Shown here one piece after another: positions 2 to 24,949 of a DNA stretch of 64,000 nucleotides. This DNA comes from Bacteroidales bacterium (GTDB lineage: Bacteria; Bacteroidota; Bacteroidia; Bacteroidales; UBA3663), in the NCBI GenBank assembly GCA_045639585.1, contig JAZUDJ010000088.1, forward strand, positions 562 to 64,561, read 5' to 3'. Position 1 is the first letter of the stretch; each line of letters starts with the position of its first letter. Position numbers and translations under genes: made by a program. The notes beneath the pieces are model-generated. The model made no database searches and had not been told where the DNA came from. It was given only the letters and a program-made list of their open reading frames with translations.

Positions 2-241
2 GTACAGCAGGCCATGATCCAGCAGTACGAAGAGGCTGCCGCCTCGCTCCGCGCGCTTGGATCTCTGCCAAGCCTGCTCCAGCCAATGCAGGATACACTC
101 GATGCGATGAAGGAGATGCCTGTCGCCTCTCCTATCGAGACCGCCATCAGCCAGCTGAGCACCGACATCTTCTACGGCATGATCCTGATGATCCCGATCG
201 CATTCATCGTCCGCAAGAAGGGTGAGGAAAGTAATTTGTAA
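2..241 (+). CDS. 3' end of a CDS that starts upstream of the window; hypothetical protein with a C-terminal hydrophobic anchor
   Basis: The frame is open from base 2 and stops at TAA 239-241. The C-terminal hydrophobic stretch IFYGMILMIPIAFIV is followed by RKKGEE. No family recognised. Confidence 0.4.
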   Translation, partial: VQQAMIQQYEEAAASLRALGSLPSLLQPMQDTLDAMKEMPVASPIETAISQLSTDIFYGMILMIPIAFIVRKKGEESNL

Positions 242-258
242 TTCGTAATTTGTAATTG
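224..258 (+). repeat. heptamer array (GTAATTN variant), 5 units, across a stop/start junction
   Basis: GAGGAAA GTAATTT GTAATTC GTAATTT GTAATTG. TAA occurs at 232, 239, 246 and 253, which covers all three forward frames. The upstream CDS stops at 239-241 and the next ATG is at 264. Confidence 0.8.
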
Positions 259-263
259 TTCTT

Positions 264-1220
264 ATGTCTTTAGATATAAGCGTAATCGTCCCTCTATATA
301 ACGAAGCCGAGTCACTGCCAGAGCTGGCAGCATGGATCGACCGAGTCATGCAAGCCAATGGCTTCTCTTACGAAGTCATCTTCTGTAATGATGGCTCGAC
401 CGATGAGAGCTGGCAGGTGATCCGCCAGTTGCATGAGAAGTATCCGCAGATGCACGGCATGTCGTTCCGCACCAATCACGGCAAGAGCCCGGCTCTTCAT
501 GTCGGTTTCGGCATGGCGCAAGGCAATGTGGTCATCACGATGGATGCAGACCTGCAGGACTCTCCTGACGAGATTCCAGAGCTCTACCGCATGATCACTG
601 AGGATGGGTATGACCTGGTTTCTGGTTGGAAGAAGAAGCGTTTCGACCCGCTGTCGAAGACCATTCCGACCAAGCTTTTTAACGCCACCGTCCGCAAGGT
701 CAGCGGCATCAAGAACCTGCATGACTTCAACTGTGGTCTCAAGGCTTACCGCGGCGAGGTCGTCAAGCACATTGAGCTCTATGGCGATATGCACCGCTAT
801 ATCCCATATCTGGCCAAGAACGCTGGGTTCGGCAAAATCGGTGAGAAAGTTGTGCAGCACCAAGCGCGTAAGTATGGCAAGACCAAGTTCGGCCTCGACC
901 GTTTCGTCAATGGTTACCTCGACCTGATCACCCTCTGGTTCCTCAACCGCTTCGGCTCGAAGCCGATGCTGATCTTCGGTCTCTGGGGTACCGTGGTCTT
1001 CCTGATCGGTTTCGTCGCCGTGCTGAGTATCATCTGCCACAAGATCTATGTGCTCAATACCGTCGGCACCGGCACATTGATCACCAATATGCCAGCCTTC
1101 TACATTGCACTCACCTGCATGCTCCTCGGCGGACAGCTGTTCCTGGCAGGCTTCCTCGGCGAACTCATCTCACGCACCGCACAAGAACGTAATAAGTACG
1201 ATGTTGCAGAAACGATCTAA
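264..1220 (+). CDS. GT2 polyprenyl-phosphate glycosyltransferase (GtrB/DPM1/ArnC-like)
   Basis: Motifs VIVPLYNEAESL, CNDGSTDES and DADLQD (DXD), plus two C-terminal hydrophobic helices typical of GtrB-like enzymes. Confidence 0.85.
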   Translation: MSLDISVIVPLYNEAESLPELAAWIDRVMQANGFSYEVIFCNDGSTDESWQVIRQLHEKYPQMHGMSFRTNHGKSPALHVGFGMAQGNVVITMDADLQDSPDEIPELYRMITEDGYDLVSGWKKKRFDPLSKTIPTKLFNATVRKVSGIKNLHDFNCGLKAYRGEVVKHIELYGDMHRYIPYLAKNAGFGKIGEKVVQHQARKYGKTKFGLDRFVNGYLDLITLWFLNRFGSKPMLIFGLWGTVVFLIGFVAVLSIICHKIYVLNTVGTGTLITNMPAFYIALTCMLLGGQLFLAGFLGELISRTAQERNKYDVAETI

Positions 1221-6111: not shown

Positions 6112-6132
6112 AAACAACAAGTTATTCGCGTG

Positions 6133-6164: not shown

Positions 6165-6213
6165 TTTTCATTCGCTTTTTTGCAATATGAGTGCAAATAA
6201 ATGTCTTGAAGTT

Positions 6214-7362
6214 TCAAGGGCGGAAAGAATTGACCCTCTTCACTACCTCTTCCACTTCTACATCCGCCAGCACGGGACTCATCGGCAGCGAGAGTTCCTG
6301 TGCACAAATCTGTTCTGTGATAAGCAACGACAGATGATGTAATTCCGGGTAACATTCCTGCTGATGAGGAGGTATCGGATAATGAATCTGCGTCTGGATT
6401 CCTTGCGAAGACAAATGCTGCTGCAAGGCGTCTCGATGGGTAGAAAGAACCGGGAAAATATGGTAGACAGAAGAGAGCGACATCTGCTCATACTTCTGCG
6501 AAGGAACAGCGACGAAGCTTTGCTCCATATTCTCATGATAGTATCGAGCGATTTCCTGACGTCGCTGGTTATCATCATCCAGATGGTGGAGCTTGACAGA
6601 AAGTATGGCCGCCTGCAGTTCATCTAATCGGCTATTGCGACCTTTATACTTGAACTCATATTTCTTATGGCTGCCATAGTTGGCCAACGCTCGGATGACC
6701 TCAGCCAACTCGGCATCATCCGTTGTTACCGCACCACCATCGCCTAAAGCTCCGAGGTTCTTGCTCGGATAGAAGCTGTGTGCAGCTGCATGGCCTAACG
6801 CCCCGGTCTTTCGGCAGCACCTCTCAGCACTCCGCACTCCACACTCCGCACTCCCAAGACCATGCGCCTGTGCATTGTCCTCCAGAACTAGCAGGCCATA
6901 TTTCTTAGCCAGTTCCCCAATTCTCTCAGTATAGGAGCATGCACCATAGAGATGCACCAACAGGATAGCTCGAGTGCGAGAACAGATGGACTGTTCTATC
7001 AGCGAGTCATCTATCTGCAGTGTATCGAGACGAGGCTCCACCAGCACCGGAGTCAATCCATTCTCTGAGATTGCCAGAATTGTCGCAATATACGTATTGG
7101 CAGGAACGATCACTTCATCTCCAGGAGCGATCTTTCCCAATTCCATATACGCTCGCAGCATGAGAATCAGTGCATCGAGACCACTAGCACAGGATATACA
7201 GTAACGGGTTCCGATGTATCGCGCATACTCCTCCTCGAAGCGTGTGCACTCCTCTCCAAGCAAATACCAACCTCGATCAATCACCCTGCGAGTTGCCTCA
7301 TGCAGTTCCTCGGCATAGCGTGCATTGATCTTCTGCAAATCCAGGAACTTAACCTCTCTCAC
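6214..7362 (-). CDS. DegT/DnrJ/EryC1/StrS-family sugar aminotransferase (PLP-dependent)
   Basis: Motifs EDNAQAHG and HSFYPSKNLGALGDGG (PLP-Lys region). GTG start at 7362-7360 overlaps the stop of the upstream GT4. A heptamer array sits between the two motifs. Confidence 0.9.
   Translation of the reverse strand: MREVKFLDLQKINARYAEELHEATRRVIDRGWYLLGEECTRFEEEYARYIGTRYCISCASGLDALILMLRAYMELGKIAPGDEVIVPANTYIATILAISENGLTPVLVEPRLDTLQIDDSLIEQSICSRTRAILLVHLYGACSYTERIGELAKKYGLLVLEDNAQAHGLGSAECGVRSAERCCRKTGALGHAAAHSFYPSKNLGALGDGGAVTTDDAELAEVIRALANYGSHKKYEFKYKGRNSRLDELQAAILSVKLHHLDDDNQRRQEIARYYHENMEQSFVAVPSQKYEQMSLSSVYHIFPVLSTHRDALQQHLSSQGIQTQIHYPIPPHQQECYPELHHLSLLITEQICAQELSLPMSPVLADVEVEEVVKRVNSFRP
6827..6854 (-). 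repeat. heptamer tandem array, 4 units, inside the DegT ORF (sense orientation)
   Basis: Plus strand GCACTCC GCACTCC ACACTCC GCACTCC. On the gene strand it is translated as SAECGVRSAE. Confidence 0.85.
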
Positions 7363-8584
7363 TAAGTACTTCTCTATAGAATTCGTAGAGTTTTTCTCTC
7401 ACAAATCCCTGCTCCCAACGCTCCGATATAATCTGACGAGCTCGCTTACCCATCTGCAGGCGCTCCTCCTCATGCTCCATCATCCAGCACATAGCCTCAT
7501 AAAGAGCATCAGCATCCTTCGATGGAACCATGACTCCATTCTCGCGGATACTCATTGTCTCCCCTGGCTGCAGATGCTGCGATACGTATTGTGAATCTAT
7601 CGCTTTAAGAATGATATCCCTGCATCCATTGATATCCGTCACGATCGATGCCAGCTCCATAGCACCAGCTTCGAGCACCGTATTCGGGAAACCTTCACGA
7701 TAGCTAGGGAATACGAAGCAATCAGCAGCGGCATAATATGCCAGCAGGTCTTCTATTGGTTTTGGACCTACCGCCTCAATCTCTGGCATCGTATCAATAA
7801 GGTGGCGTGTCTCTGGAGTAACGGGATCCAGATGATCCTCAATCCATCCGACCAGCACTAGACGACAACTTCTCCCTTCTCCCTTATTCTTTTTACTTTC
7901 AATAAGCTTGTTAAATGCAGCAACAAGCTCATTGATACCCTTATCGCCTACGATACGACCTACAAACAGAAACGTGAAGAGCTTTTTTCCATCAGGGGCA
8001 ATAGCTCCTAACTCCTCACTCCAAACTCCTACCATTTCTGGCTTTTGCCAGAATGAAAGATCTACTCCCTTCACATTACCATAGCCAAGAAGACGCATCG
8101 GCTTTTTGGTAATTCCGTAATTCTTCAGATCGTCGAGAACTCCGAGACTCTCAGGAATCACATGGGTGGCACAGGCGCAGGTTATTCTGTCGGTCATCAT
8201 CAGGATCTTACGCTTGATTCCTGATGTCGTTGGCCATATCAATCCTGTAAATGTATGAATACGATATGGAACTCTTGCCATCCATGCCGCCATCATACAC
8301 AGCAGACCAGCTTTCGGGGTCATGGAGTGCACCATATCCGGTTTCTCAGCGCGGAAGACACGATACAAAGCCCACAAGGCCTTCATATCCTTGACCAAAG
8401 AGATCTTTCTCTCCATCTCCACCCCGATGGTGCGGACATCCTCACGGGCAGCGACCTGCTTCAGATCCTCATCGGGTGAAGACACCGCTACTACCTCATA
8501 TCCTTGATCCTTCAAATCCTGTAAGATACCTTTACAGAAGATATTCAAGGATAGGCCGATCGTTGCACAACGTATAATTTTCAT
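7349..8584 (-). CDS. glycosyltransferase family 4
   Basis: FVFPSYREGFPNTVLEAGAMELASIVTDINGCRD (the E-x7-E region of the GT4/GT1 fold). Length 411 aa. Confidence 0.85.
   Translation of the reverse strand: MKIIRCATIGLSLNIFCKGILQDLKDQGYEVVAVSSPDEDLKQVAAREDVRTIGVEMERKISLVKDMKALWALYRVFRAEKPDMVHSMTPKAGLLCMMAAWMARVPYRIHTFTGLIWPTTSGIKRKILMMTDRITCACATHVIPESLGVLDDLKNYGITKKPMRLLGYGNVKGVDLSFWQKPEMVGVWSEELGAIAPDGKKLFTFLFVGRIVGDKGINELVAAFNKLIESKKNKGEGRSCRLVLVGWIEDHLDPVTPETRHLIDTMPEIEAVGPKPIEDLLAYYAAADCFVFPSYREGFPNTVLEAGAMELASIVTDINGCRDIILKAIDSQYVSQHLQPGETMSIRENGVMVPSKDADALYEAMCWMMEHEEERLQMGKRARQIISERWEQGFVREKLYEFYREVLSERG
8002..8029 (-). repeat. heptamer tandem array, 4 units, inside the GT4 ORF (sense)
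   Basis: Plus strand TAGCTCC TAACTCC TCACTCC AAACTCC. Translated as GVWSEELGA. Confidence 0.8.
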
Positions 8585-9237
8585 CCGAGTACGGTTTCAA
8601 GAATATACTTTATATCCAAAGACAGAGACTGATGGCGATAATACTCCAGATTGATTTTCACCTTATCCGGATAGATCACATAATCATTATACCACAGCGC
8701 AATCTCCTCATCGCTCATCGACGAGAACTCGACAGCAGGGCATTCACTCCTAACTCCTAATTCCTCACTCCTAACTTGATGAAGAAAATCTGCAATCAGA
8801 TTTTCCTCATCTCTGTACTTCAGCGTTGCCGGCCCCGTAATTCCAGGACGAAGCTCTAGCACCAATCGGTCCTCCCCGACCAACTTATCAGCATAGCCTG
8901 GGACATCCGGGCGCGGACCGACAAAACTCATGTCGCCGATAAAGACATTCCACAATTCAGGCAGTTCGTCGAGCTTATATTTGCGAAGCTTTGCGCCCAA
9001 TGGAGTGATACGCGCCTCTCCAGCCACACTCACGCTGCTACCGCCATGGCTCACAGTCATCGAGCGGAACTTATACATCGTGAACAGATCGCCATGCAGC
9101 CCCACTCTCTTCTGCTTGAAAATCGCAGGTCCTCCCGGCATCTTTACCTTTATTAATATAGCTACAACGATCAGCACCGGCCATAACAGCAGTAGCCCGA
9201 TCAGTGCCATCACTCTATCAAATATCCATTTACTCAT
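8581..9237 (-). CDS. small bacterial sugar transferase (PglC/WcfS-type polyprenyl-phosphate hexose-1-phosphate transferase), likely the initiating enzyme
   Basis: N-terminal re-entrant helix, then FTMYKFRSM and DELPELWNVFIGDMSFVGPRP. At 218 aa it is slightly longer than the ~200 aa I expect for this family, and it carries a heptamer array. Confidence 0.9.
   Translation of the reverse strand: MSKWIFDRVMALIGLLLLWPVLIVVAILIKVKMPGGPAIFKQKRVGLHGDLFTMYKFRSMTVSHGGSSVSVAGEARITPLGAKLRKYKLDELPELWNVFIGDMSFVGPRPDVPGYADKLVGEDRLVLELRPGITGPATLKYRDEENLIADFLHQVRSEELGVRSECPAVEFSSMSDEEIALWYNDYVIYPDKVKINLEYYRHQSLSLDIKYILETVLG
8744..8778 (-). repeat. heptamer tandem array, 5 units, inside the sugar-transferase ORF (sense)
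   Basis: Plus strand TCACTCC TAACTCC TAATTCC TCACTCC TAACTTG. Translated as VRSEELGVRSEC. Confidence 0.85.
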
Positions 9238-9260
9238 AGCCTAAGCGTTATCAGCAAAAT

Positions 9261-9274
9261 TCACTCCTCACTAA
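9261..9274 (-). repeat. two heptamer units forming the 3' end and stop codon of the GNAT gene
   Basis: Plus strand TCACTCC TCACTAA. On the gene strand this reads ...CTT AGT GAG GAG TGA (LSEE-stop). Confidence 0.5.
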
Positions 9275-9875
9275 GAGGCAGGTCCTCAATGAGCAGATCT
9301 CCATGCTCCAGTTCCTGCAATATCACCTGCTTCAGCACCGCCCCTGTCGACCGCATCGAAGCCATATTATTCTTATTAATAGACTCGAACATCCTGACTC
9401 CCAGTGTCACAGCCACATCCATCGCAGCCTTGCACATCATCTTGCCGATGCCCTGCCCCTGATGTGCATGATCCACCATCTTGCCAAGATAAGTCTGTCC
9501 ATGCACAAATGATCGCAAGAAGAAATATCCTACAATCTCCTTTTTATCACTTTCCTCATAAGCCTCCGCCACAAACATCATAAACGACGTCCTTTTCAGC
9601 AACACCTTGAGTGATTCGACATCAAATCCATGAGGTCTGAAGAACTCAAAATCCCCCTCCGGCTGTTTCGCAAAAAACTGAGCCAACGCCTCCGCATCCG
9701 CCACCACAGCCTCTCGCAGCAGTACCTTCTCCGTACTGTTCTTCGCCAGCACTCCAGCAATCTTCTTCAGTGATTTGCGATACCTGATCCCGAAAGCAGC
9801 AGAATTCATCCCCTCCGCCACTTCCCAGAGCCATCCCATGTGGTCGCGCAGTAAATGTGCAAGTTTATATAGCAT
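9261..9875 (-). CDS. GNAT-family N-acetyltransferase
   Basis: HAHQGQGIGKMM (the Q/RxxGxG/A acetyl-CoA loop). Lies between the aminotransferase/initiating-transferase genes and the GT genes. Confidence 0.8.
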   Translation of the reverse strand: MLYKLAHLLRDHMGWLWEVAEGMNSAAFGIRYRKSLKKIAGVLAKNSTEKVLLREAVVADAEALAQFFAKQPEGDFEFFRPHGFDVESLKVLLKRTSFMMFVAEAYEESDKKEIVGYFFLRSFVHGQTYLGKMVDHAHQGQGIGKMMCKAAMDVAVTLGVRMFESINKNNMASMRSTGAVLKQVILQELEHGDLLIEDLPLSEE

Positions 9876-9888
9876 AATAATCAGCTGT

Positions 9889-10704
9889 TCAAATACTCAT
9901 TACCTTGATCTGGAGTCCACGCTTCGCCAAAAAACGATTCGCCCACTTAAACAAGTAATAAGTCAAGTTCTTTTTCCTTGGTTTCTCCAACATTCTAAGG
10001 TCGAGACGACCTTGATTGAAAGGCGTCCATGAATGGAAATGGAAATGGATACAAACCACATCATCCATTCCCTCATACTTAGGAGAATCGAAAAATCTGG
10101 CAGGATAGACATGGATGTCCTCTCGAAGCACTTCCTCCTTCCCTACCTCCAGAATTGGACCTCGATATCCATAGTTCTCCGAAGCAATCAATGTCTGAAT
10201 AAATGGCATCGGACGCATATCCATCCGTAACGCCTCAGGAAGCGTTAAGTTCTCCGACCTCACAAAATGACGCTCTCGGTAATAATCGACACATTCTTTG
10301 AGGAACGGATGTCCTTTCTCTGCGCCAAAACAATGAGAAGTCAGCAAGTTGGCATGCTGGCAACATCCTTCCAGCAGAAACTCCTCAGCATGTTCCTTTC
10401 CGATGAACATACGATGATGAAGGAACGAATCGAACGATTTATAAACCGCCACATCACCATCCAACCAGATTCCTCCCTGAGTGTATACAGCATACACACG
10501 TATTGCATCAGCCGCAAATGCCCACTTTCGAGCTGCCGCAGCCTCCTTGGCAAAAAGCAGACCTGAAGCTTCGAGCGCTTCCCGGTCCCAGCATACAAAG
10601 GTATAATCCTTCAGATGCTCCTGCCAGGTAGCCATCATCTCCTTAAATGATGCCGGCATCTCTTCTCCAGAAAACCAGCTATAATGAATGATCTTTGGTA
10701 TCAT
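9889..10704 (-). CDS. GT32-like glycosyltransferase (DXD sugar-binding region)
   Basis: MIPKIIHYSWFSGEEMP and GGIWLDGDV. Clear paralogue of 47211-48029. Confidence 0.8.
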   Translation of the reverse strand: MIPKIIHYSWFSGEEMPASFKEMMATWQEHLKDYTFVCWDREALEASGLLFAKEAAAARKWAFAADAIRVYAVYTQGGIWLDGDVAVYKSFDSFLHHRMFIGKEHAEEFLLEGCCQHANLLTSHCFGAEKGHPFLKECVDYYRERHFVRSENLTLPEALRMDMRPMPFIQTLIASENYGYRGPILEVGKEEVLREDIHVYPARFFDSPKYEGMDDVVCIHFHFHSWTPFNQGRLDLRMLEKPRKKNLTYYLFKWANRFLAKRGLQIKVMSI

Positions 10705-10710
10705 ACGTAG

Positions 10711-11721
10711 TTATGCATTACGTTTCAATCGAGGCAGAATCCACGGCACAAAGACATGCCGATAGCACCAGCCGCCAAGGGAATACCTGCCATAGCCAGC
10801 CATCATCCATCCCATACATTGCCCGACGCGACCTGCTTGGGTCAATGGCAGACCACCTACTTCTTGCATTTTATCTGTAATAGTGCGCCACTCCTGTCGA
10901 CAATAATTTGCCGATAAAGCGCGACTTAGACAAGGAATCATCTGCTGCTGGATATAGGTCTGCATCTTCTGCTGCAGTTCCAGAAGTCGTGTGCCATACT
11001 CTTTCATGCTCGTCATCATCTGCAGATAACTATCGACTATCCGACGCATCTTCTCCGGGTTGCGTGTCGTAGTCATCGAATCTGGCTCCACCACATACCT
11101 ATATATATTAGCGCGCACGGAGATCATCCTCGGATTCGCCATCATCAGATCCAAACAAAAAGCTGCATCATCACAAAGCGTATAGTTTCGGAATCGCACC
11201 TCATGACACATCACAAAGTTCTTTCGGATCAGCAACTGCCACACAAAATACGGCATCATCGTCTGGTAGAATCCATGGCCATCACCCGCATAGTCGATGC
11301 TCAGGTCTATCTCCGTAGGTTCTTTCCAATGCTTTCGGGAGTAGTCATCCATCGTACGCGAGGAGAATCGGATCAAATCAATCTCATCACTCCAGTGCTG
11401 TCGCAGTATAGCAGCATACGCTCCAGCCACCAGATAGTCATCTGCGTCGCAGAACGTTATGATCTCGCCTCGCGCCTCCTCAATGCCACGGTTCCTAGAG
11501 GCCGGACACCCTAAATTCTGAGGATTCTCAATCAGTCTTACCGACGCGCCCGATCTTCCTTCGTAGCTCCTTATGATCTCCTTCGATCCATCCGTCGAAC
11601 CATCGTCTACGCATACGATCTCCATCTCTTCCTCACTCAAACCCTGATTCAGCAACGATTCAAGGCAACGAGGCAAAAACTTCTCGGCATTATAGACAGG
11701 TACAATGACAGACAACAGCAT
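10711..11721 (-). CDS. glycosyltransferase family 2
   Basis: LSVIVPVYNAEKFL, VDDGSTDGS and FCDADDY. I prefer ATG at 11721; the ORF track begins at TTG 11727. Paralogue of 26166-27182. Confidence 0.85.
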   Translation of the reverse strand: MLLSVIVPVYNAEKFLPRCLESLLNQGLSEEEMEIVCVDDGSTDGSKEIIRSYEGRSGASVRLIENPQNLGCPASRNRGIEEARGEIITFCDADDYLVAGAYAAILRQHWSDEIDLIRFSSRTMDDYSRKHWKEPTEIDLSIDYAGDGHGFYQTMMPYFVWQLLIRKNFVMCHEVRFRNYTLCDDAAFCLDLMMANPRMISVRANIYRYVVEPDSMTTTRNPEKMRRIVDSYLQMMTSMKEYGTRLLELQQKMQTYIQQQMIPCLSRALSANYCRQEWRTITDKMQEVGGLPLTQAGRVGQCMGWMMAGYGRYSLGGWCYRHVFVPWILPRLKRNA

Positions 11722-11730
11722 CGGCAATTC

Positions 11731-11765
11731 TACCTTTTCACTATTAACTGTTAACTTTTATCTTA
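11731..11765 (-). repeat. degenerate heptamer array, 5 units, across a gene junction
   Basis: Plus strand TACCTTT TCACTAT TAACTGT TAACTTT TATCTTA. On the gene strand it supplies the C-terminus KIKVNS and three consecutive in-frame stops, TAA TAG TGA (11746-11738). Confidence 0.6.
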
Positions 11766-12880
11766 AGCGCATACCCTGGAATGCTTCTATATTCCTCCGA
11801 ATGCACAAATCGCCATGCATCCACCAATCCCTGCACAAAATAGATCGGTATCCTCAAATCAAGCAGCAGGACGCCAGCAATAATATTGACCAGCAGCAAC
11901 CACACACATTTCAGCACGAAAGCTGTAACAAGAGCGGCTTGAGACGAAGAATTTACTCCAAACTCCTCACTCTTCGAGCCCTCAGCTAAAGCTTCGTCTT
12001 CTCGCCAAGAGCATAAAAATGCTCTTGCTATTGGCTGCGAGGACCTCACTCCTAACTTAATTCTGTACCATATTATCGCAGACATCAGCGACCTGATATA
12101 ATACTTCTTATGCGTATGATGATACACCGAGCTTGCCGTCTTCGCATTGAGGTAATTCACTCCTGCATCATAGTTGAGCATGAGCTTACCTCCATTGACG
12201 AAGCACTTGAATGATTCCACCAGGTCATCACCGTATGCGAACTCCGAGAGCCGGTCCATCCATAGCTCATCCTCCCAGTGGAGTGATAGGAGCGAAGACC
12301 TCTTCCACATCACACACGGGCCATCCAGTTTCTGCGTTGGCAAACATAATCCAGAATCACACTTCTTAGCATCCCGAATCTCTGCAATCTTTCGCTTTGA
12401 GAGATAGCTGAACGCTCCCGTGCGAGTCACCTTATACGCCCACTTAACATCATAATGAGGAGCCACCCAGTTGGTCAGGATAGCAAAAGTCTTCAGACCA
12501 AGACTCATATCCTGATCCTTGAAACAGTCGGCACCCATCGCATCCACATCATGCGCCACCAAGCTCTTGAGCAATCGCTCTGCCGTATCCGGAGCCAGCT
12601 CCACATCGTCATCGAGCAATAGCAGATAAGGCGATGTCAATTCATCGTATGGCAATGCACGCTGTGCCACCATGCCCTTCTTGACATAGCGATACTCCTC
12701 ACGACCGATTGTTCCGTCCACGAACTTCACGCCACATGTCTCCGCCACATATACGATCACCCTCTCCGGCTGTATCGTCTGGCGAGCAATGGACTCCAGC
12801 TCCTGTCTGAACTTTTCTCCTGCCGTACCAAGTGTACGTATCGCTATCGAATATTTAGGTATCAATTCCTCACACCTCAT
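11744..12880 (-). CDS. GT-A fold (GT2-like) glycosyltransferase with a C-terminal membrane segment
   Basis: YSIAIRTLGTAGEKF and LLLLDDDVEL. Paralogue of 17871-18836 but 32 codons longer near the C-terminus. Confidence 0.7.
   Translation of the reverse strand: MRCEELIPKYSIAIRTLGTAGEKFRQELESIARQTIQPERVIVYVAETCGVKFVDGTIGREEYRYVKKGMVAQRALPYDELTSPYLLLLDDDVELAPDTAERLLKSLVAHDVDAMGADCFKDQDMSLGLKTFAILTNWVAPHYDVKWAYKVTRTGAFSYLSKRKIAEIRDAKKCDSGLCLPTQKLDGPCVMWKRSSLLSLHWEDELWMDRLSEFAYGDDLVESFKCFVNGGKLMLNYDAGVNYLNAKTASSVYHHTHKKYYIRSLMSAIIWYRIKLGVRSSQPIARAFLCSWREDEALAEGSKSEEFGVNSSSQAALVTAFVLKCVWLLLVNIIAGVLLLDLRIPIYFVQGLVDAWRFVHSEEYRSIPGYALKIKVNS
11953..12059 (-). repeat. composite insert: heptamer units at both ends plus a 9-bp hairpin
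   Basis: TTACTCC AAACTCC TCACTCT (11953-11973). Hairpin CAAGAGCAT-AAAA-ATGCTCTTG (12006-12027). TCACTCC TAACTTA (12046-12059). This corresponds to the extra peptide SQPIARAFLCSWREDEALAEGSKSEEFGVNSS that the paralogue lacks. Confidence 0.7.
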
Positions 12881-12897
12881 TCCTCGCTCCTAACTAT
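12863..12897 (-). repeat. heptamer array, 5 units, spanning a stop/start junction
   Basis: Plus strand CAATTCC TCACACC TCATTCC TCGCTCC TAACTAT. On the gene strand: AGT TAG GAGCGAGGA ATG AGG TGT GAG GAA TTG. The upstream stop, a 9-nt purine spacer and the downstream ATG all lie inside the array. Confidence 0.8.
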
Positions 12898-13591
12898 ATT
12901 GGGCCATCCCCAACATCTCCTGCACTCTGTGCCATACCTGTGTTATCTTGCTTCGATAGTACGCCATCTTCCCGTGAGGAGACTTCGTAAACCAATGGAT
13001 GCTGAACGTATTCTCCGTCTTCTTCAGCACTCCAGTCAGATCATTATACGGACACATCCAGTCTCGCGGCAGGATCTCCGCCTCCAGCACCTTTTGCCTC
13101 TCGCCATTAGTCTTTAGTCCATTGGCAAGCATGGCTTCCGTATTCAACTGCGGGCAACCCATGATCTCCGTCAAGTTCTCATACATTCCCAGCATCGCTT
13201 GCACAGCCGGATGATGAGCCGCAGCAGCAAAACCCAGACCCGTATTGATATACTCCTTAGTCTCCCAGCCAAACCAGGCCGACACCTCGTCCGACTCCAG
13301 CAGTTCCGTCGGTCTTCGCACCAGCTCTACATCCGTATCGAAGTAGAAACCACCTTCATGCTCCACCACGATCAGTCGTACCACATCGCTCAAATAGGCC
13401 CAACGCCTCTGCTCATACGCCATCTTGGCATACGGGTGGCAATTCACATCGAAGTTCTGCTCATTCCACTCCTTGATTTCAAAGTCTGGCAAGTACTTCT
13501 TCCAGCTCTCGATGCATTTCTTGGCCGATGCTGGTAACGGATTACCACCGAACCAACAATAATGTATTATCTTCGGAATCATCTGAAACAA
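12890..13591 (-). CDS. GT32-like glycosyltransferase (DXD sugar-binding region)
   Basis: MIPKIIHYCWFGGNPLP and FYFDTDVEL. Confidence 0.75.
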   Translation of the reverse strand: MFQMIPKIIHYCWFGGNPLPASAKKCIESWKKYLPDFEIKEWNEQNFDVNCHPYAKMAYEQRRWAYLSDVVRLIVVEHEGGFYFDTDVELVRRPTELLESDEVSAWFGWETKEYINTGLGFAAAAHHPAVQAMLGMYENLTEIMGCPQLNTEAMLANGLKTNGERQKVLEAEILPRDWMCPYNDLTGVLKKTENTFSIHWFTKSPHGKMAYYRSKITQVWHRVQEMLGMAQYS

Positions 13592-14250
13592 ATCGTAAAT
13601 AGGCTCTTGGCGTAGCTATCAGCCAGCAAATAGTAATATCGGACAAGAGACAAGTTGCTCCGGTTCATTCGGATCGCCGTCCTTCCCTGCCTGCGTCTCA
13701 ATAAATATTTCTCCTTATCATACTTCTCTGGTCTTCGATAGATAATCAGCGGTTCCTGCAGGAATCCGAAAGTCGAAATCTTTCGCGTCCTCGTCCACAG
13801 ATCCCAGTCCTCGCACCCATCGCACTCACTCCGGTAAGGATGCTCACGGAACCACTCCGTCCGTCCCATCACCGACGGATGGATGAACGTCCATTCTCCT
13901 GCTCCCGTGCCACACACATCCACCTCGGGATGCTCCTGCAGATACTTTACCTGTAATGCCAGTCGCTCCGGCAGCATCACATCATCTGCATCCATACGCG
14001 CGAAGTACTCTCCCCGCGCCATCGCCACCTGCTGGTTCAGTCGATAAGAAATACCATGATGTTCTCCATCAACCTGCAGAACAATTCGGTCATCCTTCAA
14101 ATACTCCTTAATGATTTCAACCGAACAGTCAGACGAACCATCATCAGTAATGAAGAGTTCCCAATCCTCATACGTCTGAGCCAGAACAGACTCAATTGCC
14201 TCTCCTATCCATTTCTCTGCATTATAAACCGGAAGACCAATTATAATCAT
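13579..14250 (-). CDS. glycosyltransferase family 2 (short form)
   Basis: IIGLPVYNAEKWI, ITDDGSSDCS and ARMDADDV. Confidence 0.8.
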   Translation of the reverse strand: MIIIGLPVYNAEKWIGEAIESVLAQTYEDWELFITDDGSSDCSVEIIKEYLKDDRIVLQVDGEHHGISYRLNQQVAMARGEYFARMDADDVMLPERLALQVKYLQEHPEVDVCGTGAGEWTFIHPSVMGRTEWFREHPYRSECDGCEDWDLWTRTRKISTFGFLQEPLIIYRRPEKYDKEKYLLRRRQGRTAIRMNRSNLSLVRYYYLLADSYAKSLFTICFR

Positions 14251-14301
14251 CAGAAATCTCTATCGGCAAGAAAAATTACAAAAATCGCTTAAAAGCATTT
14301 A

Positions 14302-14323
14302 TTTTTGCCGATACCGGCAAAAA
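14302..14323. terminator. weak A/T-extended hairpin in an 84-bp intergenic gap
   Basis: TTTTTGCCG-ATAC-CGGCAAAAA. Only 4 G:C pairs, so it is a weak candidate. Confidence 0.3.
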
Positions 14324-14334
14324 TCATAGTCGAA

Positions 14335-15600
14335 TTACTCACACAGCTTATAGATCTTCTCGATCTCCGACTCATTGCCATAATCATGCTCTGACAGATA
14401 CTCAGTCAATGAGCTCAGCAACTTCTCATCCTTGATTACCTTAATCATCGCCTCAGCACACGCCTCACGCTCCAATGGCACAATCACTCCATCCACACCA
14501 TCCTGCACCTGCGACGGCGCCGTAGGATAATGCGTCACAATCACCGGCTTGCACAATATCTGCGCCTCCCTCACCGTAATGCTTTTCCCTTCATACCGCG
14601 AAGGCTGTACATAGATATCGCACGTACGGATATATGGATAAGGATTCGACTGCTTGCCAAGTAGAATCACGTGCTCCTCCATCCCTTCCTTGCGAATCTC
14701 ATCCCTCACCTGTTGCTCAATCTCAGGACTTCCGTAGCCGATAATGTACCACTTGACATTCCTACCTCCAAACTCTTCACTCTTACTTATGTCGTCGACC
14801 AATCGCCGACATAAGTAAGGAATGTCTTCCATCTTCTTAGCCTTCGAGTATCGTCCTATCGTCAAGAGCTTTAAATAATGATCCTGCTCAAATATAGGGC
14901 AAGACTCCTGACTTCTCTGACGAATAAAACGCGGAGATAGAATATTCTCGATATCAATAATCTTATTTTTCAAAGAAGGGAATACCTCCACGAACTTAGC
15001 CGATACATCAGGAGAAATAGAAGAGATCACATCCAGACGCTCCCACATGCGCAGCTCCATCTCCCGATTGATGAATACATTCGTATAGTCCGTGTGGATC
15101 CATCCAAGCTTCTTCTTCGCACGGACTTTATCCAGTACAATATAATGAGGTGTCAGAAACGAAATTGCCAGATCATATTCCACCTCAGGATTAATCTTCG
15201 GCAAACACTTCACAGTCCTATGCTGCTGAAACACAACATGCGCATTACTCTCCAGCCCCTTAACATTACGCTTCAGATATCTCTTATCCTCCCATCTACC
15301 CCAAAGTCGAGCAAGAGCCAGTCGCCAGTATCCTTTCTTTATCAGCAACGCTATCGGCTCTTCCAGCATCGCATAAGCCTCCACCTCCGGCAGCAATCTA
15401 AATCTAGGGACAATCTGGCATTCCTCACTCCTCACTCCACACTCCTCACTAATATAATGCATCAACTCCCCTCTATGCGCATAAATAAAAACATCCACCT
15501 CTGAACGAACAGGATCCACACTCTGCAGCAAGCCGAGAAGTGCCATCTCAGCACCACCCAGCTCCATATAATGCATCGCTATAAGAATCTTCGGCCTCAT
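14335..15600 (-). CDS. glycosyltransferase family 4
   Basis: IYVQPSRYEGKSITVREAQILCKPVIVT. Carries two repeat insertions (14763-14819 and 15418-15452). Confidence 0.8.
   Translation of the reverse strand: MRPKILIAMHYMELGGAEMALLGLLQSVDPVRSEVDVFIYAHRGELMHYISEECGVRSEECQIVPRFRLLPEVEAYAMLEEPIALLIKKGYWRLALARLWGRWEDKRYLKRNVKGLESNAHVVFQQHRTVKCLPKINPEVEYDLAISFLTPHYIVLDKVRAKKKLGWIHTDYTNVFINREMELRMWERLDVISSISPDVSAKFVEVFPSLKNKIIDIENILSPRFIRQRSQESCPIFEQDHYLKLLTIGRYSKAKKMEDIPYLCRRLVDDISKSEEFGGRNVKWYIIGYGSPEIEQQVRDEIRKEGMEEHVILLGKQSNPYPYIRTCDIYVQPSRYEGKSITVREAQILCKPVIVTHYPTAPSQVQDGVDGVIVPLEREACAEAMIKVIKDEKLLSSLTEYLSEHDYGNESEIEKIYKLCE
14763..14819 (-). repeat. heptamer units fused to a 13-bp perfect hairpin inside the GT4 ORF
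   Basis: TACCTCC AAACTCT TCACTCT (14763-14783). Hairpin CTTACTTATGTCG (14782-14794) / CGACATAAGTAAG (14807-14819). Translated as PYLCRRLVDDISKSEEFGGRN. Confidence 0.75.
15418..15452 (-). repeat. heptamer tandem array, 5 units, inside the GT4 ORF (sense)
   Basis: Plus strand GCATTCC TCACTCC TCACTCC ACACTCC TCACTAA. Translated as ISEECGVRSEEC. The reverse complement of 15427-15446 equals 23100-23119. Confidence 0.85.
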
Positions 15601-15636
15601 GGAATATTAGTTTTTCTTCGTTATGGGATTATTTAC

Positions 15637-15671
15637 GAACTCCTCACTCCTAGTTCCTCACTCTTCATTAA
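15637..15671 (-). repeat. heptamer tandem array, 5 units, filling an intergenic gap
   Basis: Plus strand GAACTCC TCACTCC TAGTTCC TCACTCT TCATTAA. The reverse complement of 15638-15667 matches 21994-22023 at 28/30. Confidence 0.85.
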
Positions 15672-15672
15672 T

Positions 15673-16794
15673 TTAGAGTTTTCCAATCAAGAACATAAAT
15701 AATGTAAATCCCGCATGCAGCAGCAAGAACAATCCAATCTTGCGATCCTGATCATCCCAAATATGCAAACGGATTAAGCCATACGCTAGCACCAATGGAT
15801 AAAGAAACCAGGAAAGATAAGCAAAACGATTACTGAAATTCACACGAATTACTAAAATCCAAATACTATTAGCCAAAAGATAGGTTACGGCCAAGTAGTC
15901 AAAAATACGTTCTCGGATTTTCTTCTTGATATTAACATAGTATATTAGCAATACTGGCATGGCACTATATAACAAAAAGTCCCAGCGGAAGCCAGTACGA
16001 GAGAACCCCGCCTCTGTAGTATGACCAACTGCATAATCAGCATATTTTGCTTCACCAGCCATCAAACTTCCTAAGTGGCTCGTAAAGAAGCCTCCTGCCA
16101 CAAGTGACAGTCCAATAGATGCCACCCAAATCATCAGAGCATATTTTGGATTCTTTATAATATACAAAGCAGTAACAGCGCAAACAATAGGAATAATTGT
16201 AGACTTATGAATTGACAAAACCAAATATGCGATAATCGCTGCTAATAAAAGTTGCATTTTATTACCATTAGCCCGTATTGCGATTGTCATTGCCGCCATT
16301 ACTATAGCGCAGGCTAAACCATTACGAACGCCATTCACTGCAAACACATAAAACTCAAAAGCAGAAAGAATAAATAGCATCGCTATCCATACATTTTCCC
16401 ATAATAGTTTCCGGCAAGCCCAATATTGCAAATAGATATAGCCAATCGCACAAACTAAAAAAAAGATCTGCTCACTCATCCCCAAATTAATGAGCACTTG
16501 TTGAATCCAGGAAAAGACCCATTCTCCCTTGTCCTCAATAGCCGCTCCAGATATTAATCCTGCTCGATACCCACGCGCATAAGTGACCATATCTCCGAAC
16601 ATCCAATGCGTTGGTCGCAATCCCAAATATAAAATAACCAACACACTTAATAAAAGAGCTGGAACAAAAGTATTTTGCTGAAGTAAAAGCTTATTATTAG
16701 GAGATGCTGAATATCGTATAAACACAAACCCACATAGGGCAAAAGCTACCCAATAATAAACTTGAGAATAAATAAAAGGAGAAATCCCAAACAT
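15673..16794 (-). CDS. EpsG-family / Wzy-like polysaccharide polymerase (polytopic membrane protein)
   Basis: 373 aa and hydrophobic throughout (about 10-11 predicted helices). Positioned among GT genes. The assignment rests on architecture and context only. Confidence 0.6.
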   Translation of the reverse strand: MFGISPFIYSQVYYWVAFALCGFVFIRYSASPNNKLLLQQNTFVPALLLSVLVILYLGLRPTHWMFGDMVTYARGYRAGLISGAAIEDKGEWVFSWIQQVLINLGMSEQIFFLVCAIGYIYLQYWACRKLLWENVWIAMLFILSAFEFYVFAVNGVRNGLACAIVMAAMTIAIRANGNKMQLLLAAIIAYLVLSIHKSTIIPIVCAVTALYIIKNPKYALMIWVASIGLSLVAGGFFTSHLGSLMAGEAKYADYAVGHTTEAGFSRTGFRWDFLLYSAMPVLLIYYVNIKKKIRERIFDYLAVTYLLANSIWILVIRVNFSNRFAYLSWFLYPLVLAYGLIRLHIWDDQDRKIGLFLLLHAGFTLFMFLIGKL

Positions 16795-21996: not shown

Positions 21997-22024
21997 AGAG
22001 TGAGGAATTAGGAGTGAGCAGTTA
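21997..22024 (+). repeat. heptamer tandem array, 4 units, at the 3' end of the VirE-like gene (antisense to it)
   Basis: AGAGTGA GGAATTA GGAGTGA GCAGTTA. The last TTA is the stop codon (reverse complement TAA) of 22022-24280. Confidence 0.85.
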
Positions 22025-24280
22025 TTCGACGCGAACCAAATATCTTTTGATACCATGAAGAATGCGGCATTCAAAACCCTGACGGCCAAGCGCAGCACCT
22101 AAGGCTCTGACATTCAGCTTTGCCGACGGATTGTAGTAATTGATTCGCGCTGCAATCTCCGCCGCAGTCATCCACTTGCTGTCGCTCAGCGGTTGGCCAT
22201 CCTCTCCAAGATTAGGTTGGTGTACATAGACACTGCACAGTTCCACCTCAACGCTCTGCGACACATACTGCTCATTGTGCTTGTCGAGCTGTCGGATGTC
22301 CTGCTGGCTCATCACAAACATCCCAGCCTCATGCTGCGCCAGATAGAGAGCTTGCGCGTAAATATGTTCGTAGTCGGGACGACACTCGAAAGGATTGACG
22401 GTAAAGCGACGCACCGTAAATGTCAGCCAGCGGCGGTTGCCTGTCGGGTCGGTCAGGAAGTCGGCGCGATTGCCCGTAGCGCAGAACGTAGCGATACGCG
22501 GCATGGTACGTGGCGACTTGTCGTATGGCAAACGTTCGCGGATCACATCGAGCGTGACGAGAGACTTGAGTTGATTGACCTCCACCTCGCTCATCGCATC
22601 GATCTCCTCCAGGTTAATCAATCCGCACTCGGCCAGCTGGATGCGGTCGTCCTTGTCGAGGTTGCGGAAGCGCATCTGCTCCTTATAATAAGCGCGAAGC
22701 TCCGGTGGCATCAGCATACGCATCCACGAGGACTTGCCTATGCCCTGCGCACCGATGAAAGTCAGGATTGTGCCATGGGTGCTCGACATGTGAATCCAGC
22801 CGTGCACCATCGCCACCATCCAGCGCTTGAAGAAGTCGTCGAGCAAGGCGCGCGTCTCCTCGCCACCCTCCACCTCCACCGTCTGGATCAGCTCGTGAAG
22901 GTAGTCCTTATCACCAGGCTTCCACAATCCTTGCAACGGCTGCAGATACGCTATAATAGGATTGTAGGGCAATGAGCAGGTGTCACTCTGAAGGACATTA
23001 TACACGTCGGTCGATGTGGTGGTCAATGCAGTTTCCTCAAAGAACAGGCGCATCAAGGTGGCGACATCCGAGTCGTGCAACTCGTAATAGTGTGGAATTA
23101 GGAGTGTGGAGTGAGGAGTTTTTCCACTCTCGCACAAAGATCCGACCAAAGCCAATGACGACAGGTTACGCTGAGCGTATTGAGCCATTTGCGAGCCTTC
23201 ATTCCACTCGACCTCCAGTCGGTGAGAGATCATATTCTTGCGATACGTTCCCTGACTCAGCAAAAACGCCTCGATGTCAGCCGACGTGGCGCGATGCACC
23301 TTCTTCTCGCTGTTTTTCTGCTGGTTAGGCAATCGAAGTGTACCGAACTCTGCCTGCTTCGACTCGTAAATGCTCTTCACCACGCTCGTGATACCACGCT
23401 CTCCGTCACCATAATAGAAGTAGCGCTCCTTAGCCTCAGCCAGCGCCTCTTCCTGCTCGATGCCATAGCGATTGACCTCATAAATGACGGTGCTAAGGAA
23501 CTTGTTCAACGTGCCATGCTTCGCCTCAAATCCTTGCGTCTTGGCAAAGGCCTCAGCGGCATCAAAGGCTCTGGACAGCTGCGTCTTGACAGGTCGTCCC
23601 ACCGGATTGCCCGTCGCCATATGGGCCTTGCTCTGCTCAAAGTCGAGCAAAGCCTGGCTTAAGATAACGGTATAGGGCTGATAGTTATCCTTAAAATACT
23701 TAGCCTCAGGATCGTATGCCATAGCACTCGGTCGCGCTGCATCCTTACACTGCGTATCGACACGGAGATCCTTCAGCGTCGGAGCATTCGAGAACCACTC
23801 CTCAAACTGGCGGCGCACATCCTCCCAGATGGCATTCCACAGCAGGCGTGAGCGCTGACTCTTCTTCGGATCACGGAAGTCGAGCTCCGCCAAGTCCATC
23901 GGCTGCATATCGTGATAGCACACCTGATAGGCCACGATGACGTGCAGGCCCTTGCCGCTCAACGACCGGTGATAGCCAACGACATGCATCAGCATACCGA
24001 GGTAAGCGACCATGTATTCCATCTGCTTCTCATCCAGATGGTCATAGTCGAAGTAAAGCAATCCAGTGAGCTGCTTGATATTCTCCGTCTTCCTGCCACC
24101 CTCCATGATGGCCGACGGTACGAACACCGGCACGCGCTGCTTTTGCCCCACTCCCTGACGGTGCATCTCTGTCTGCATCCGCAAGTCCTGATCCGTCTTT
24201 ATTTTCGTAAAGACGTCGCCCAGCGACACTATCTGCGGGGGGGTAGACAGTAGATTATTGAAAGTTGAAACGGTTTCCAA
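22022..24280 (-). CDS. VirE-like P-loop NTPase with an N-terminal primase-like (VirE_N/BT4734-like) region
   Basis: Walker A FIGAQGIGKSSW. 752 aa with a large N-terminal domain. TTG start at 24280, 9 nt after the HTH gene stop. The family call comes from remembered architecture, not a search. Confidence 0.75.
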   Translation of the reverse strand: METVSTFNNLLSTPPQIVSLGDVFTKIKTDQDLRMQTEMHRQGVGQKQRVPVFVPSAIMEGGRKTENIKQLTGLLYFDYDHLDEKQMEYMVAYLGMLMHVVGYHRSLSGKGLHVIVAYQVCYHDMQPMDLAELDFRDPKKSQRSRLLWNAIWEDVRRQFEEWFSNAPTLKDLRVDTQCKDAARPSAMAYDPEAKYFKDNYQPYTVILSQALLDFEQSKAHMATGNPVGRPVKTQLSRAFDAAEAFAKTQGFEAKHGTLNKFLSTVIYEVNRYGIEQEEALAEAKERYFYYGDGERGITSVVKSIYESKQAEFGTLRLPNQQKNSEKKVHRATSADIEAFLLSQGTYRKNMISHRLEVEWNEGSQMAQYAQRNLSSLALVGSLCESGKTPHSTLLIPHYYELHDSDVATLMRLFFEETALTTTSTDVYNVLQSDTCSLPYNPIIAYLQPLQGLWKPGDKDYLHELIQTVEVEGGEETRALLDDFFKRWMVAMVHGWIHMSSTHGTILTFIGAQGIGKSSWMRMLMPPELRAYYKEQMRFRNLDKDDRIQLAECGLINLEEIDAMSEVEVNQLKSLVTLDVIRERLPYDKSPRTMPRIATFCATGNRADFLTDPTGNRRWLTFTVRRFTVNPFECRPDYEHIYAQALYLAQHEAGMFVMSQQDIRQLDKHNEQYVSQSVEVELCSVYVHQPNLGEDGQPLSDSKWMTAAEIAARINYYNPSAKLNVRALGAALGRQGFECRILHGIKRYLVRVE
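23094..23121 (+). repeat. heptamer tandem array, 4 units, inside the VirE-like ORF (antisense orientation)
   Basis: GGAATTA GGAGTGT GGAGTGA GGAGTTT. Read on the gene strand as KTPHSTLLIP. Confidence 0.85.
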
Positions 24281-24289: not shown

Positions 24290-24766
24290 TTATTTCGAAT
24301 TAAGACTACGGCGCTTCTTAATCTCCTCGCGCATCATGAGCCACAACTCAGGACCGGCATTGCTCTTCTCCCCTCGTACAGTCAAACCGAGTTTGCGCTG
24401 GAATAATCGCCACAAGGTGGAGTCATTCGCATAACCGAAAACCTTGGCGACGTCATCGAGCTTAGCATCCGGATGCACCCCGATATACTCCTCCACCTGA
24501 TGGATACGGTATTGCTGAATCACATCGATCAACCGCATATCCATTTCGAGCTGAATAGCATAAGCCAACTTGCGAGCATCGACAGCGAGATACTCTGCCA
24601 GTTCCTTGCTCTCAATGCACTTCGTATCATAAAGAGCTTCCGCCACCGCATTGACGAGGCGCGACGCTGTGTATGTCTCCGGCTGACCAGGGATATAATC
24701 GAAAACTTGCTGTAAAGTGACAGCAGGAAGATAAGGTTTAGTTTCTTTCATAATAGATTTTGACAT
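24290..24766 (-). CDS. AraC-type helix-turn-helix DNA-binding protein (single HTH_18-like domain)
   Basis: ELAEYLAVDARKLAYAIQ... and LDDVAKVFGYANDSTLWRLFQRKLGLT. ATG at 24766 (MSKSIMKETKPY); 24751 is an alternative. The track ORF to 24934 starts at TTG and only translates the upstream repeats. Confidence 0.7.
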   Translation of the reverse strand: MSKSIMKETKPYLPAVTLQQVFDYIPGQPETYTASRLVNAVAEALYDTKCIESKELAEYLAVDARKLAYAIQLEMDMRLIDVIQQYRIHQVEEYIGVHPDAKLDDVAKVFGYANDSTLWRLFQRKLGLTVRGEKSNAGPELWLMMREEIKKRRSLNSK

Positions 24767-24949
24767 TAGGGACGTGATGTTAGAATAATTGTCTTGTGAG
24801 TCTAACACTGCGGACGTAGTGTTGGTATCTGAGAGCTGCGAGTCTAACACTACGTCCCTAGTGTTAAGTCTCACGGCCTGCGAATCTAACACTACGTCCG
24901 CAGTGTTAGATCCATTCGTGCAAGATATTAACAACGCGAACGTAGTGTT
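24762..24949. repeat. five palindromic sites with exact 42-bp phasing upstream of the HTH gene
   Basis: Cores: 24762-24781 GACATTAGGGACGTGATGTT (degenerate), 24804-24823 AACACTGCGGACGTAGTGTT, 24846-24865 AACACTACGTCCCTAGTGTT, 24888-24907 AACACTACGTCCGCAGTGTT, 24930-24949 AACAACGCGAACGTAGTGTT. Centres fall at 24771.5, 24813.5, 24855.5, 24897.5 and 24939.5. Confidence 0.85.

Follow-up and report, generated by a model that had tools for sequence, protein, structure and literature searches.

A 64,000-nucleotide (nt) stretch of contig JAZUDJ010000088.1 from a Bacteroidales bacterium (assembly GCA_045639585.1, positions 562 to 64,561), in the following referred to as the window, contains 16 short arrays of tandem heptamers, all of one family with the unit GGARTKA (2-5 units; mostly 4-5 units, ≈ 28-35 nt). 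The probable explanation is a dispersed, lineage-specific heptanucleotide-repeat family, which coding loops tolerate, which also serves as gene punctuation in spacers, and which is colonised by a small translatable mobile element. This reading is carried by the repeat family itself, by indels at its intragenic sites, by a permissive loop in an aminotransferase, by a filter on frame and stop codons, by stability among strains, and by a filled/empty polymorphism of the small element. What is new here is the latter: a 72-nt hairpin element within the arrays, in the same register in four copies, at different sites in two close strains, and in frame.

The heptamer family and its 72-nt hairpin element

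The noted arrays were recovered by Tandem Repeats Finder (TRF, period 7) and also by two scans, one for autocorrelation at period 7 and one that scored units; the head-to-tail arrangement of the 7-nt units was confirmed by TRF and autocorrelation. Three successive GGARTKN units with ≤2 mismatches were matched 30 times, in 12 arrays, versus 0.15 expected from dinucleotide shuffles. Among the short periods only period 7 is over-represented (seven arrays, versus 2, 2, 0 and 0 for periods 5, 6, 8 and 9), and all period-7 arrays are of the NNARTKA type, i.e., of the same single family. Individual arrays are mixtures of GGAGTGA, GGAGTTA, GGAATKA, GGAGTGC and GGAGTGT with at most two identical neighbours, and the sequences flanking the 16 arrays are unrelated to one another. 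The arrays are purine-rich and predicted to be almost unstructured; a G-quadruplex, suggested by the four-unit preference of GGGNATC repeats, was rejected, as none was predicted for any array (ViennaRNA, G-quadruplex folding on). Two polysaccharide loci of the Bacteroidales genome fall within the window (44.4% GC), where almost all genes are on the minus strand. The family is also present in related strains and species (L001, L002, L123, L124, L436, L440, L441), and related contigs are labelled 'Bacteroidales bacterium', 'Prevotella sp.' or 'Prevotellaceae'.

Ten of the 16 arrays lie fully within genes, which all have Pfam support or homologues, and three overlap gene ends. For the stretch from 6.8 to 15.7 kb, the original prediction, made from the sequence alone, had counted ten arrays, all oriented like the genes. 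The arrays are real and every coordinate quoted was exact, the count now being 11; the common orientation holds within this stretch (11/11 on the minus strand, the gene strand) and is lost elsewhere, where four arrays (21997, 23094, 38998, 57297) run antisense on the plus strand, three of them inside minus-strand genes. Seven of the 11 are intragenic, in frame and free of stops, and encode S-E-E-L-G-V-R-type peptides; the other four are located at or between gene ends, and three of those provide a stop and/or start codon. The antisense reading gives T-P-H-S-S-L-L-type peptides. Two perfect duplications of neighbouring units (GCACTCC GCACTCC at 6827-6840, TCACTCC TCACTCC at 15425-15438) and the four peptides reported from the DegT aminotransferase, two GT4 glycosyltransferases and a sugar transferase were found exactly as described. 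The arrays of the sense stretch are as follows (aa, amino acids; ORF, open reading frame):

6827..6854, minus strand: array GGAGTGC GGAGTGT GGAGTGC GGAGTGC, sense and in frame in the DegT aminotransferase gene 6214..7362, aa 170-179, GSAECGVRSA
8002..8029, minus strand: array in the GT4 glycosyltransferase gene 7349..8584, aa 186-195, GVWSEELGAI; empty site of the 72-nt element, filled in strain L436
8744..8778, minus strand: array in the PglC-like Bac_transf (sugar transferase) gene 8581..9237, aa 154-165, QVRSEELGVRSE
9258..9276, minus strand: two-unit array at the junction of the GNAT gene (9261..9875) and the Bac_transf gene; provides the GNAT stop codon; copy number differs between strains
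11737..11764, minus strand: AAGTTAA-type heptamer array, overlaps and provides the stop of ORF 11744..12880
11953..11973, minus strand: right half of an array in ORF 11744..12880, KSEEFGVN; array interrupted by the 72-nt element
12045..12061, minus strand: left half of the same array, ORF 11744..12880, IKLGVR
12863..12890, minus strand: junction array, provides two codons, the stop (TAG) of gene 12890..13591 and the start (ATG) of ORF 11744..12880; orthologous array in L001
14756..14783, minus strand: degenerate array in the GT4 gene 14335..15600, KSEEFGGRNV; 8 aa longer in strain L441
15418..15452, minus strand: array in the GT4 gene 14335..15600, ISEECGVRSEEC
15637..15664, minus strand: intergenic array, located in the 72-nt spacer that separates the EpsG-like gene 15673..16794 from the start of the GT4 gene; edge of strain-level homology

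The 72-nt element interrupts one of these arrays:

11973..12044 (boundary ambiguous by 1 nt), minus strand: 72-nt hairpin element in the middle of a four-unit array, ORF 11744..12880; frame open as SSQPIARAFLCSWREDEALAEGSK

The product of ORF 11744..12880 has 378 aa in the window versus 354 aa in its closest relatives (P0275, a 17-member cluster), and the difference is an exact 72-nt insertion. The site is empty in L436, L440 and L441, three syntenic contigs of close strains that are ≈ 95-96% identical to the window over 3.7-15.6 kb. The GT4 gene 7349..8584 shows the reverse state, being filled in L436 (12934-13004) and empty in the window. The cores of these two copies are identical (71/71), and with flanks 102 nt are 99% identical, against a background of ≈ 95%. 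A third copy, 97% identical, was located in the DegT-loop array of L123 (~8551-8622), and a fourth, 92% identical, in L438, where it is inverted within the antisense array of another DegT. The element thus occurs in four copies, 92-100% identical, in three different genes, and is both multi-copy and polymorphic for presence and absence.

All four copies share the identical heptamer register, GGAGTKAGG ^ AGTGAGGAG. The length of 72 nt equals 24 codons, and read-through is predicted in all four hosts, with the frame open in three sense copies and one antisense copy; together with its flanks, the element has three open frames, one sense and two antisense, the predicted peptides being SSQPIARAFLCSWREDEALAEGSK (sense) and SEPSAKASSSRQEHKNALSYGCED (inverted). 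The hairpin has a folding energy of -14.2 kcal/mol (z = -2.2). Four bases flanking the element at the L436 site are not those of the empty allele, and because all four match the flanks of the window copy, the sequence hints at homology-driven copying in which the flanking heptamers move along with the element. The possibility that the arrays are excision scars of the element was rejected, for recombination of the flanking direct repeats would remove 79 nt, in contrast to the 72 nt observed. Rfam gave only a chance RtT match around the element (E = 0.63), and searches for further copies of the core found none in a JGI metagenome scan, none in plasmids, and only chance matches to the palindrome in IMG/VR.

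Outside the sense stretch the window holds four arrays antisense to its genes, and a variant:

21997..22024, plus strand: array located at the VapE-like gene's 3' end, upstream of the Fic gene; antisense to the two genes
23094..23121, plus strand: array antisense within the VapE-like primase gene 22022..24280, KTPHSTLLIP
38998..39032, plus strand: array antisense within the ABC-2 permease gene 38646..39488, QFLTPHSSLLIL
57297..57331, plus strand: array antisense within the 4Fe-4S protein gene 56640..58181, NTPNSPLQTPNS
231..258, plus strand: (GTAATTN)4 array, intergenic, 5 nt before the ATG of the GT2 gene 264..1220; variant unit of the same family

The GTAATTN unit also occurs antisense within the GT2 gene of L440 and L441, and it grades into GGAGTTG units inside single cyanobacterial arrays (L115).

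Intragenic arrays as indels at permissive sites

In the DegT aminotransferase the array is a 10-aa insertion relative to the solved homologues 7n63/5u1z; the alignment with 7n63 is full-length (E = 9e-114), and 7n63 is without exactly ten residues at the array. The insertion is located at the tip of a β-hairpin before the strand of the Schiff-base lysine. In the AlphaFold2 (AF2) model, with a mean confidence score (pLDDT) of 86, the values for residues 173-181, a segment flanked by strands 158-163 and 192-197, are lower than 50. The GVRSEE-type segment, for which an insertion had been suspected in the original prediction, is indeed an indel, missing from most orthologues and from all solved structures, and it maps to a low-confidence loop between two strands.

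The same loop was surveyed in 118 close DegT relatives. The AQAHG-RTGSLG segment is short in 31 of them, carries a sense GGARTKA array in 14, and an antisense array, read as FTPHSSLLIPHSS and similar, in 15; at least 14 have other inserts with a 7-aa period (NSQLSTLNSQL, SSQLSALSSQL; IENGKLKIEN within the 'other' class). The DNA of four relatives confirmed such inserts as heptamer arrays, namely a reverse-complement array (L124), (AACTCTC)4 (L126), (ATTGAAA)n (L125), and a composite insert (L123). Between species the inserts differ by steps of 7 aa (21 nt), e.g., P0129 versus P0130. Among 80 unbiased metagenomic orthologues, which gave 57 loops, a 6-residue turn was found in 37, and ten loci had differing inserts of 12-53 aa; the sequences point to the 6-residue turn as the ancestral DegT loop. 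Unrelated repeats fill this loop in L369, L380 and L407, and since different inserts and unrelated repeats sit there in other lineages, it is to be regarded as tolerant; the notion of a specific target was rejected on these grounds. The DegT-loop inserts of L369, L380, L407 and L439 comprise a 53-aa insert made of 2.5 copies of a 63-nt unit that contains a palindrome, a 38-aa insert rich in Ser, Val and Pro, and two 37-nt tandem units with CAAGTTC heptamers on their flanks.

The PglC-like family possesses a 25-residue variable segment that is missing from the 191-194-aa forms, and in a 68%-identical relative this segment consists of two near-consensus arrays of 5 and 4 units. The proposal that the array accounts for the extra length of the window protein is borne out for ≈ 12 residues; the excess over short orthologues amounts to ≈ 25, and the array does not explain the rest. 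The AF2 model of this protein (pLDDT 54) is too poor for use, and no PDB homologue was found for the GT4 protein of 7349..8584. The array of the ABC-2 permease falls on a gap of ≈ 7 aa relative to the TarG and Wzm structures, and in the 4Fe-4S protein only substitutions occur in the array among eight aligned members of a 33-member cluster.

Pure (GGAGTGA)3 or (GGAGTTA)3 has a stop in all three forward frames. Intragenic units in which bases 6-7 and the next base form a codon (KAG) have G at the sixth base in 9/9 cases; where bases 5-7 form the codon (TKA), TGA is used in 0/7, with TTA, TTT, TGT or TGC instead. The stop-avoiding choice of units inside ORFs, already recognised in the original prediction, is therefore without exception. 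Its reading as insertion followed by purifying selection gains support as well, given that the arrays are insertions relative to orthologues and structures and that only stop-free unit variants occur inside ORFs.

Origin of the arrays and alternative explanations

This gut Bacteroidales lineage carries the GGARTKA family between genes and, unusually, inside genes. According to the favoured reading, the family is dispersed and specific to the lineage. The intragenic arrays would be passengers, kept where the net length is a multiple of three, no in-frame stop arises, and ≈ 7-12 extra residues are tolerated, such that the G-V-R-S-E-E (sense) and T-P-H-S-S-L-L (antisense) peptides would be by-products of reading the repeat and not conserved protein features. 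Among strains, most intragenic arrays are as stable as their flanks; over longer times they would change in 21-nt steps, be replaced by other arrays, or be lost. Spacer arrays would be free in unit number, often providing a stop or start codon. Furthermore, the arrays would act as insertion sites of the 72-nt hairpin element, which would move between arrays and be itself translatable. We infer that new arrays are copied from existing ones (by template switching or gene conversion, together with local slippage) and do not originate independently at each site; the movement of the element presumably makes use of the heptamers and depends on homology or register.

Several observations weigh against this reading. 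No clean filled/empty pair of a whole array was found between near-identical strains. The GTAATTN-type array of L440/L441 partly looks like a local expansion of native coding sequence, and some arrays may arise in place. The orientation is non-random (11/11 sense in 6.8-15.7 kb, 4/4 antisense elsewhere), which would not be expected of arrays that are passengers and nothing more, and the arrays in gene spacers may be functional. As to the 72-nt element, four copies were found; its terminal inverted repeat is weak (≈ 7/11 by eye), there is no target-site duplication, and the junction can be placed only to within 1 nt. The 64-kb window encodes neither a transposase nor another candidate enzyme, and 1.84 billion representative proteins yielded no real match to the peptide of the element. 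That GGARTKA arrays occur across many taxa also says little. In a scan of 185,579 species genomes, such arrays were found in many phyla (Nostocales, Bacteroidales, rumen Firmicutes, even genomes of 72% GC); this is background of little weight, because permuted control heptamers gave 32-50 matches in IMG/VR versus >120 for GGARTKA, i.e., they are rarer by a factor of at least 2.4-4 only (a third permuted control overlapped the real family and was not clean).

Outside the present lineage the arrays are longer, purer, and almost always intergenic: 10/16 are fully inside genes in the window, versus 0/42 in cyanobacteria and 2/21 in other Bacteroidales, with sampling that differs between the groups. 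Arrays outside the lineage (L004, L009, L015, L037, L109, L116, L117) often form close inverted pairs, hairpin-capable like repetitive extragenic palindromic (REP) sequences and bacterial interspersed mosaic elements (BIMEs); no such pairing is seen among the window arrays. Two contigs, viral or proviral, are dense in GGARTKA, with 13-15 arrays in 31-46 kb (L172, L174, L188 = IMGVR_UViG_2820209022_000004; L138-L187 = IMGVR_UViG_3300021256_000006), and in one of them, at 60-66% GC, the AT-rich units are compositionally out of place. Within the window, two low-GC islands rich in glycosyltransferase genes (16000-21000 and 25000-38000; 34-40% GC versus 47-52% elsewhere) are free of GGARTKA arrays, consistent with recent acquisition of the islands and with arrays building up during residence in the lineage. 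The GC skew on the plus strand is unusually strong across the array-rich 6000-16000 (-0.21 to -0.27) and near zero at 36-58 kb, both stretches having minus-strand genes.

A bolder version of the favoured reading, which we hold to be unlikely, would make the heptamer arrays attachment or homology sites of a lineage-specific copy-and-paste system that places arrays and shuttles translatable cassettes such as the 72-nt element. If true, this system would keep remodelling surface loops and gene junctions of the glycan enzymes of gut Bacteroidales, and would amount to a mobile system, guided by repeats and without a described equivalent, that diversifies proteins in frame.

A role in cis appears improbable as the general explanation. 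In this view spacer arrays would work either through RNA (in translation initiation or coupling, or by binding a regulator, for instance S1 or a cold-shock protein) or through DNA, with the intragenic copies as spill-over. Five arrays are indeed located in, or fill, short spacers of co-directional genes, and three provide stop or start codons; TAACTGA repeats, which are placed alike, have been proposed to bind a post-transcriptional regulator (PMC4679880). The uniform sense orientation across the operon-like stretch and the predicted lack of structure point in the same direction. Along these lines, the spacer array 9258..9276 between GNAT and Bac_transf has 2, 2, 6 or 7 units among the four strains compared (that of the window, with two units, and L436, L440 and L441), differing between the window and L436, the GNAT stop shifting with it, and since the unit number differs between strains, spacer copy number may act on the expression of the downstream gene. 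On the other hand, ten of the 16 arrays are fully within genes, three of them antisense, and at the 15637 array the 72-nt spacer of the window is replaced in L436 by a spacer of 3 nt. GGAG is moreover unlikely as a ribosome-binding site, because Bacteroidetes are not known to use Shine-Dalgarno pairing.

That the arrays are independent local microsatellites, grown by slippage from a chance proto-repeat at each site with no copying among sites, is doubtful. Slippage has been given as the cause of heptanucleotide repeats, which are reported to outnumber all other long simple-sequence repeats of prokaryotes (Mrazek 2007, as cited in PMC4679880); relatives show changes of 21 and 35 nt, the GTAATTN array of L440/L441 extends native coding sequence, and the permuted control heptamers are common in IMG/VR, too. 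Against this stands that all 16 window arrays belong to one unit family despite unrelated flanks, with a length narrowly confined to 4-5 units, and that other lineages use other families (L125: four AAAATTG-type arrays). Furthermore, a GGAGTKA array replaces unrelated sequence without a proto-repeat in the DegT loop and in the GT2 gene of L436, where ≈ nine sense units are found; L440 and L441 have the antisense GTAATTN-type array there, and the window allele retains the canonical DDGSSD motif. Related strains have a Fic-domain gene between GT4 and GT2 (L436 5818-6702, L440 4149-5033, L441 4231-5115) that is missing at window 14251-14334, and the GT2 N-terminus beside this gene is a different allele in them (78% versus 96% nucleotide identity).

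The original prediction regarded the intragenic arrays as candidate contingency loci, in which a 7-nt unit gained or lost through strand slippage would shift the frame and turn surface-glycan genes on or off. Heptanucleotide-driven phase variation occurs in the pilin-glycosylation (pgl) genes of Neisseria, 7 is not a multiple of 3, the hosts include surface-structure genes (DegT, GT4, Bac_transf and GT2 of the polysaccharide locus), two arrays have two identical neighbouring units, and one intergenic array differs by 4-5 units among strains. The strain comparison makes this switch very unlikely. The arrays of DegT, PglC and the first of GT4 14335..15600 show only substitutions among the four strains (DegT in three); the array of GT4 7349..8584 has only substitutions in L441 and additionally the 72-nt element in L436, and the second array of GT4 14335..15600 has eight extra residues in L441. 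Identity within arrays is 265/275, versus ≈ 95.4% outside. At ≥90% identity, the DegT cluster comprises 20 sequences, all of 382 aa among the 15 listed, the 4Fe-4S (Fer4) cluster 33, of 513 or 514 aa among the 15 listed, and the 354-aa form of ORF 11744..12880 is represented 17 times. No frameshifted or split gene was found in the four ≈ 95% identical strains (≈ eight intragenic arrays) or among the listed members of the 17-, 20- and 33-member clusters, though for the latter the protein-level searches would miss frameshifted alleles. All intragenic length differences preserve the frame (the GT2 array replacement, the +8 aa in GT4, and the 72-nt element), and units are imperfect with no more than two identical in a row. 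Similar arrays lie antisense in the primase, the ABC-2 permease and the 4Fe-4S protein, and orthologous arrays persist and drift between species (L001). The contingency claim is thus not upheld; there is no sign in the sequences that intragenic arrays act as on/off switches, and the strain pattern is the one that selection on tolerated insertions would predict, not a frameshifting contingency tract. Finally, a G-V-R-S-E-E segment selected as linker or motif can practically be discarded: four enzymes of one locus share similar peptides, but the likeness resides in the DNA (the same heptamers), relatives read the reverse complement at the same DegT site, and the segment is absent from most orthologues and all solved structures and of low confidence in the model.

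Elsewhere in the window, three 31-nt direct repeats at 42-nt spacing (24794, 24836, 24878) lie inside 64-nt inverted arms at 24760-24951, overlapping the 5' end of the HTH_18 ORF 24290..24934 and adjoining the VapE-like primase and Fic genes; they may represent an iteron, an operator or the attachment region of an integrated element. No tRNA was found in the window, and Rfam at gathering thresholds gave no match over its whole length.

Significance and relation to known repeat systems

If the pattern holds genome-wide, the enzymes of the lineage would accommodate translated repeat insertions by the hundreds, as has been documented to date chiefly for the Rickettsia palindromic elements (RPEs). 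The translated arrays would provide a natural map of insertion-permissive loops, such as the hairpin tip of DegT, and the arrays are potential recombination seams in the capsule and O-antigen loci of an abundant gut group. For annotators and predictors of phase variation there is a warning that non-triplet repeats in glycan genes are not necessarily switches. With four close strains that differ at arrays, and a 72-nt element that moves between them, a tractable case becomes available for the long-open question of how heptanucleotide families spread.

In the library of papers searched, none has GGAGTGA- or GGAGTTA-type arrays or their peptides. Heptanucleotide repeats are nonetheless a recognised, unexplained class, comprising the long simple-sequence repeats of Mrazek, the short tandemly repeated repetitive (STRR) sequences of Nostocales, TAACTGA, and GGGNATC (PMC4679880, PMC4692102). 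The TAACTGA repeats of Beggiatoaceae, Cyanobacteria and Bacteroidetes (MacGregor 2015) lie just before starts, overlap stops, contain stops in all forward frames, and are occasionally reversed within ORFs (PMC4679880); GGGNATC heptamers occur in Xanthomonas and Nostoc (PMC4692102). This class shares with the window arrays the dispersal of one 7-nt family over many loci, the short length of often ≈ four units, the spacers just before starts, the stop overlap, and forward units with stops alongside readable reverse units. The window arrays differ in their GGARTKA unit and, as the main departure, in being located mostly inside genes, in either orientation, where the class is predominantly intergenic; their sense copies in ORFs use mixed units that avoid stops, and no G-quadruplex is predicted.

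Simple-sequence contingency loci, such as the tetranucleotide repeats in lipooligosaccharide genes of Haemophilus, resemble the window arrays in a unit that is not a multiple of three and in their location within surface-glycan genes. In contrast to them, the window arrays have neither long identical runs nor frameshifting variation in close strains, and some of them are antisense or located in housekeeping genes. Mobile elements are known to target dispersed repeats in the case of the insertion sequences IS1397 and ISKpn1 in BIMEs and the IS110 family in REP sequences. The 72-nt element, likewise, was found only inside a dispersed repeat and at a fixed unit position (4/4 copies); unlike them, it encodes no transposase, has none nearby and generates no target-site duplication, and the co-variation of its flanks suggests homology-driven copying.

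[quoted passage not shown] Like the window repeats, RPEs are short selfish repeats in many unrelated genes, in frame, translated, and placed at fold-tolerant sites, and they have in common with the 72-nt element a hairpin and a conserved peptide reading. They differ as palindromes of 100-150 nt versus tandem heptamers of 28-35 nt, the 72-nt element being half as long as an RPE and known solely from within heptamer arrays, and their host is an obligate intracellular alphaproteobacterium, in contrast to the free-living gut Bacteroidales considered here. The Rickettsia palindromic element is the closest functional counterpart of both the in-frame copies and the 72-nt element.

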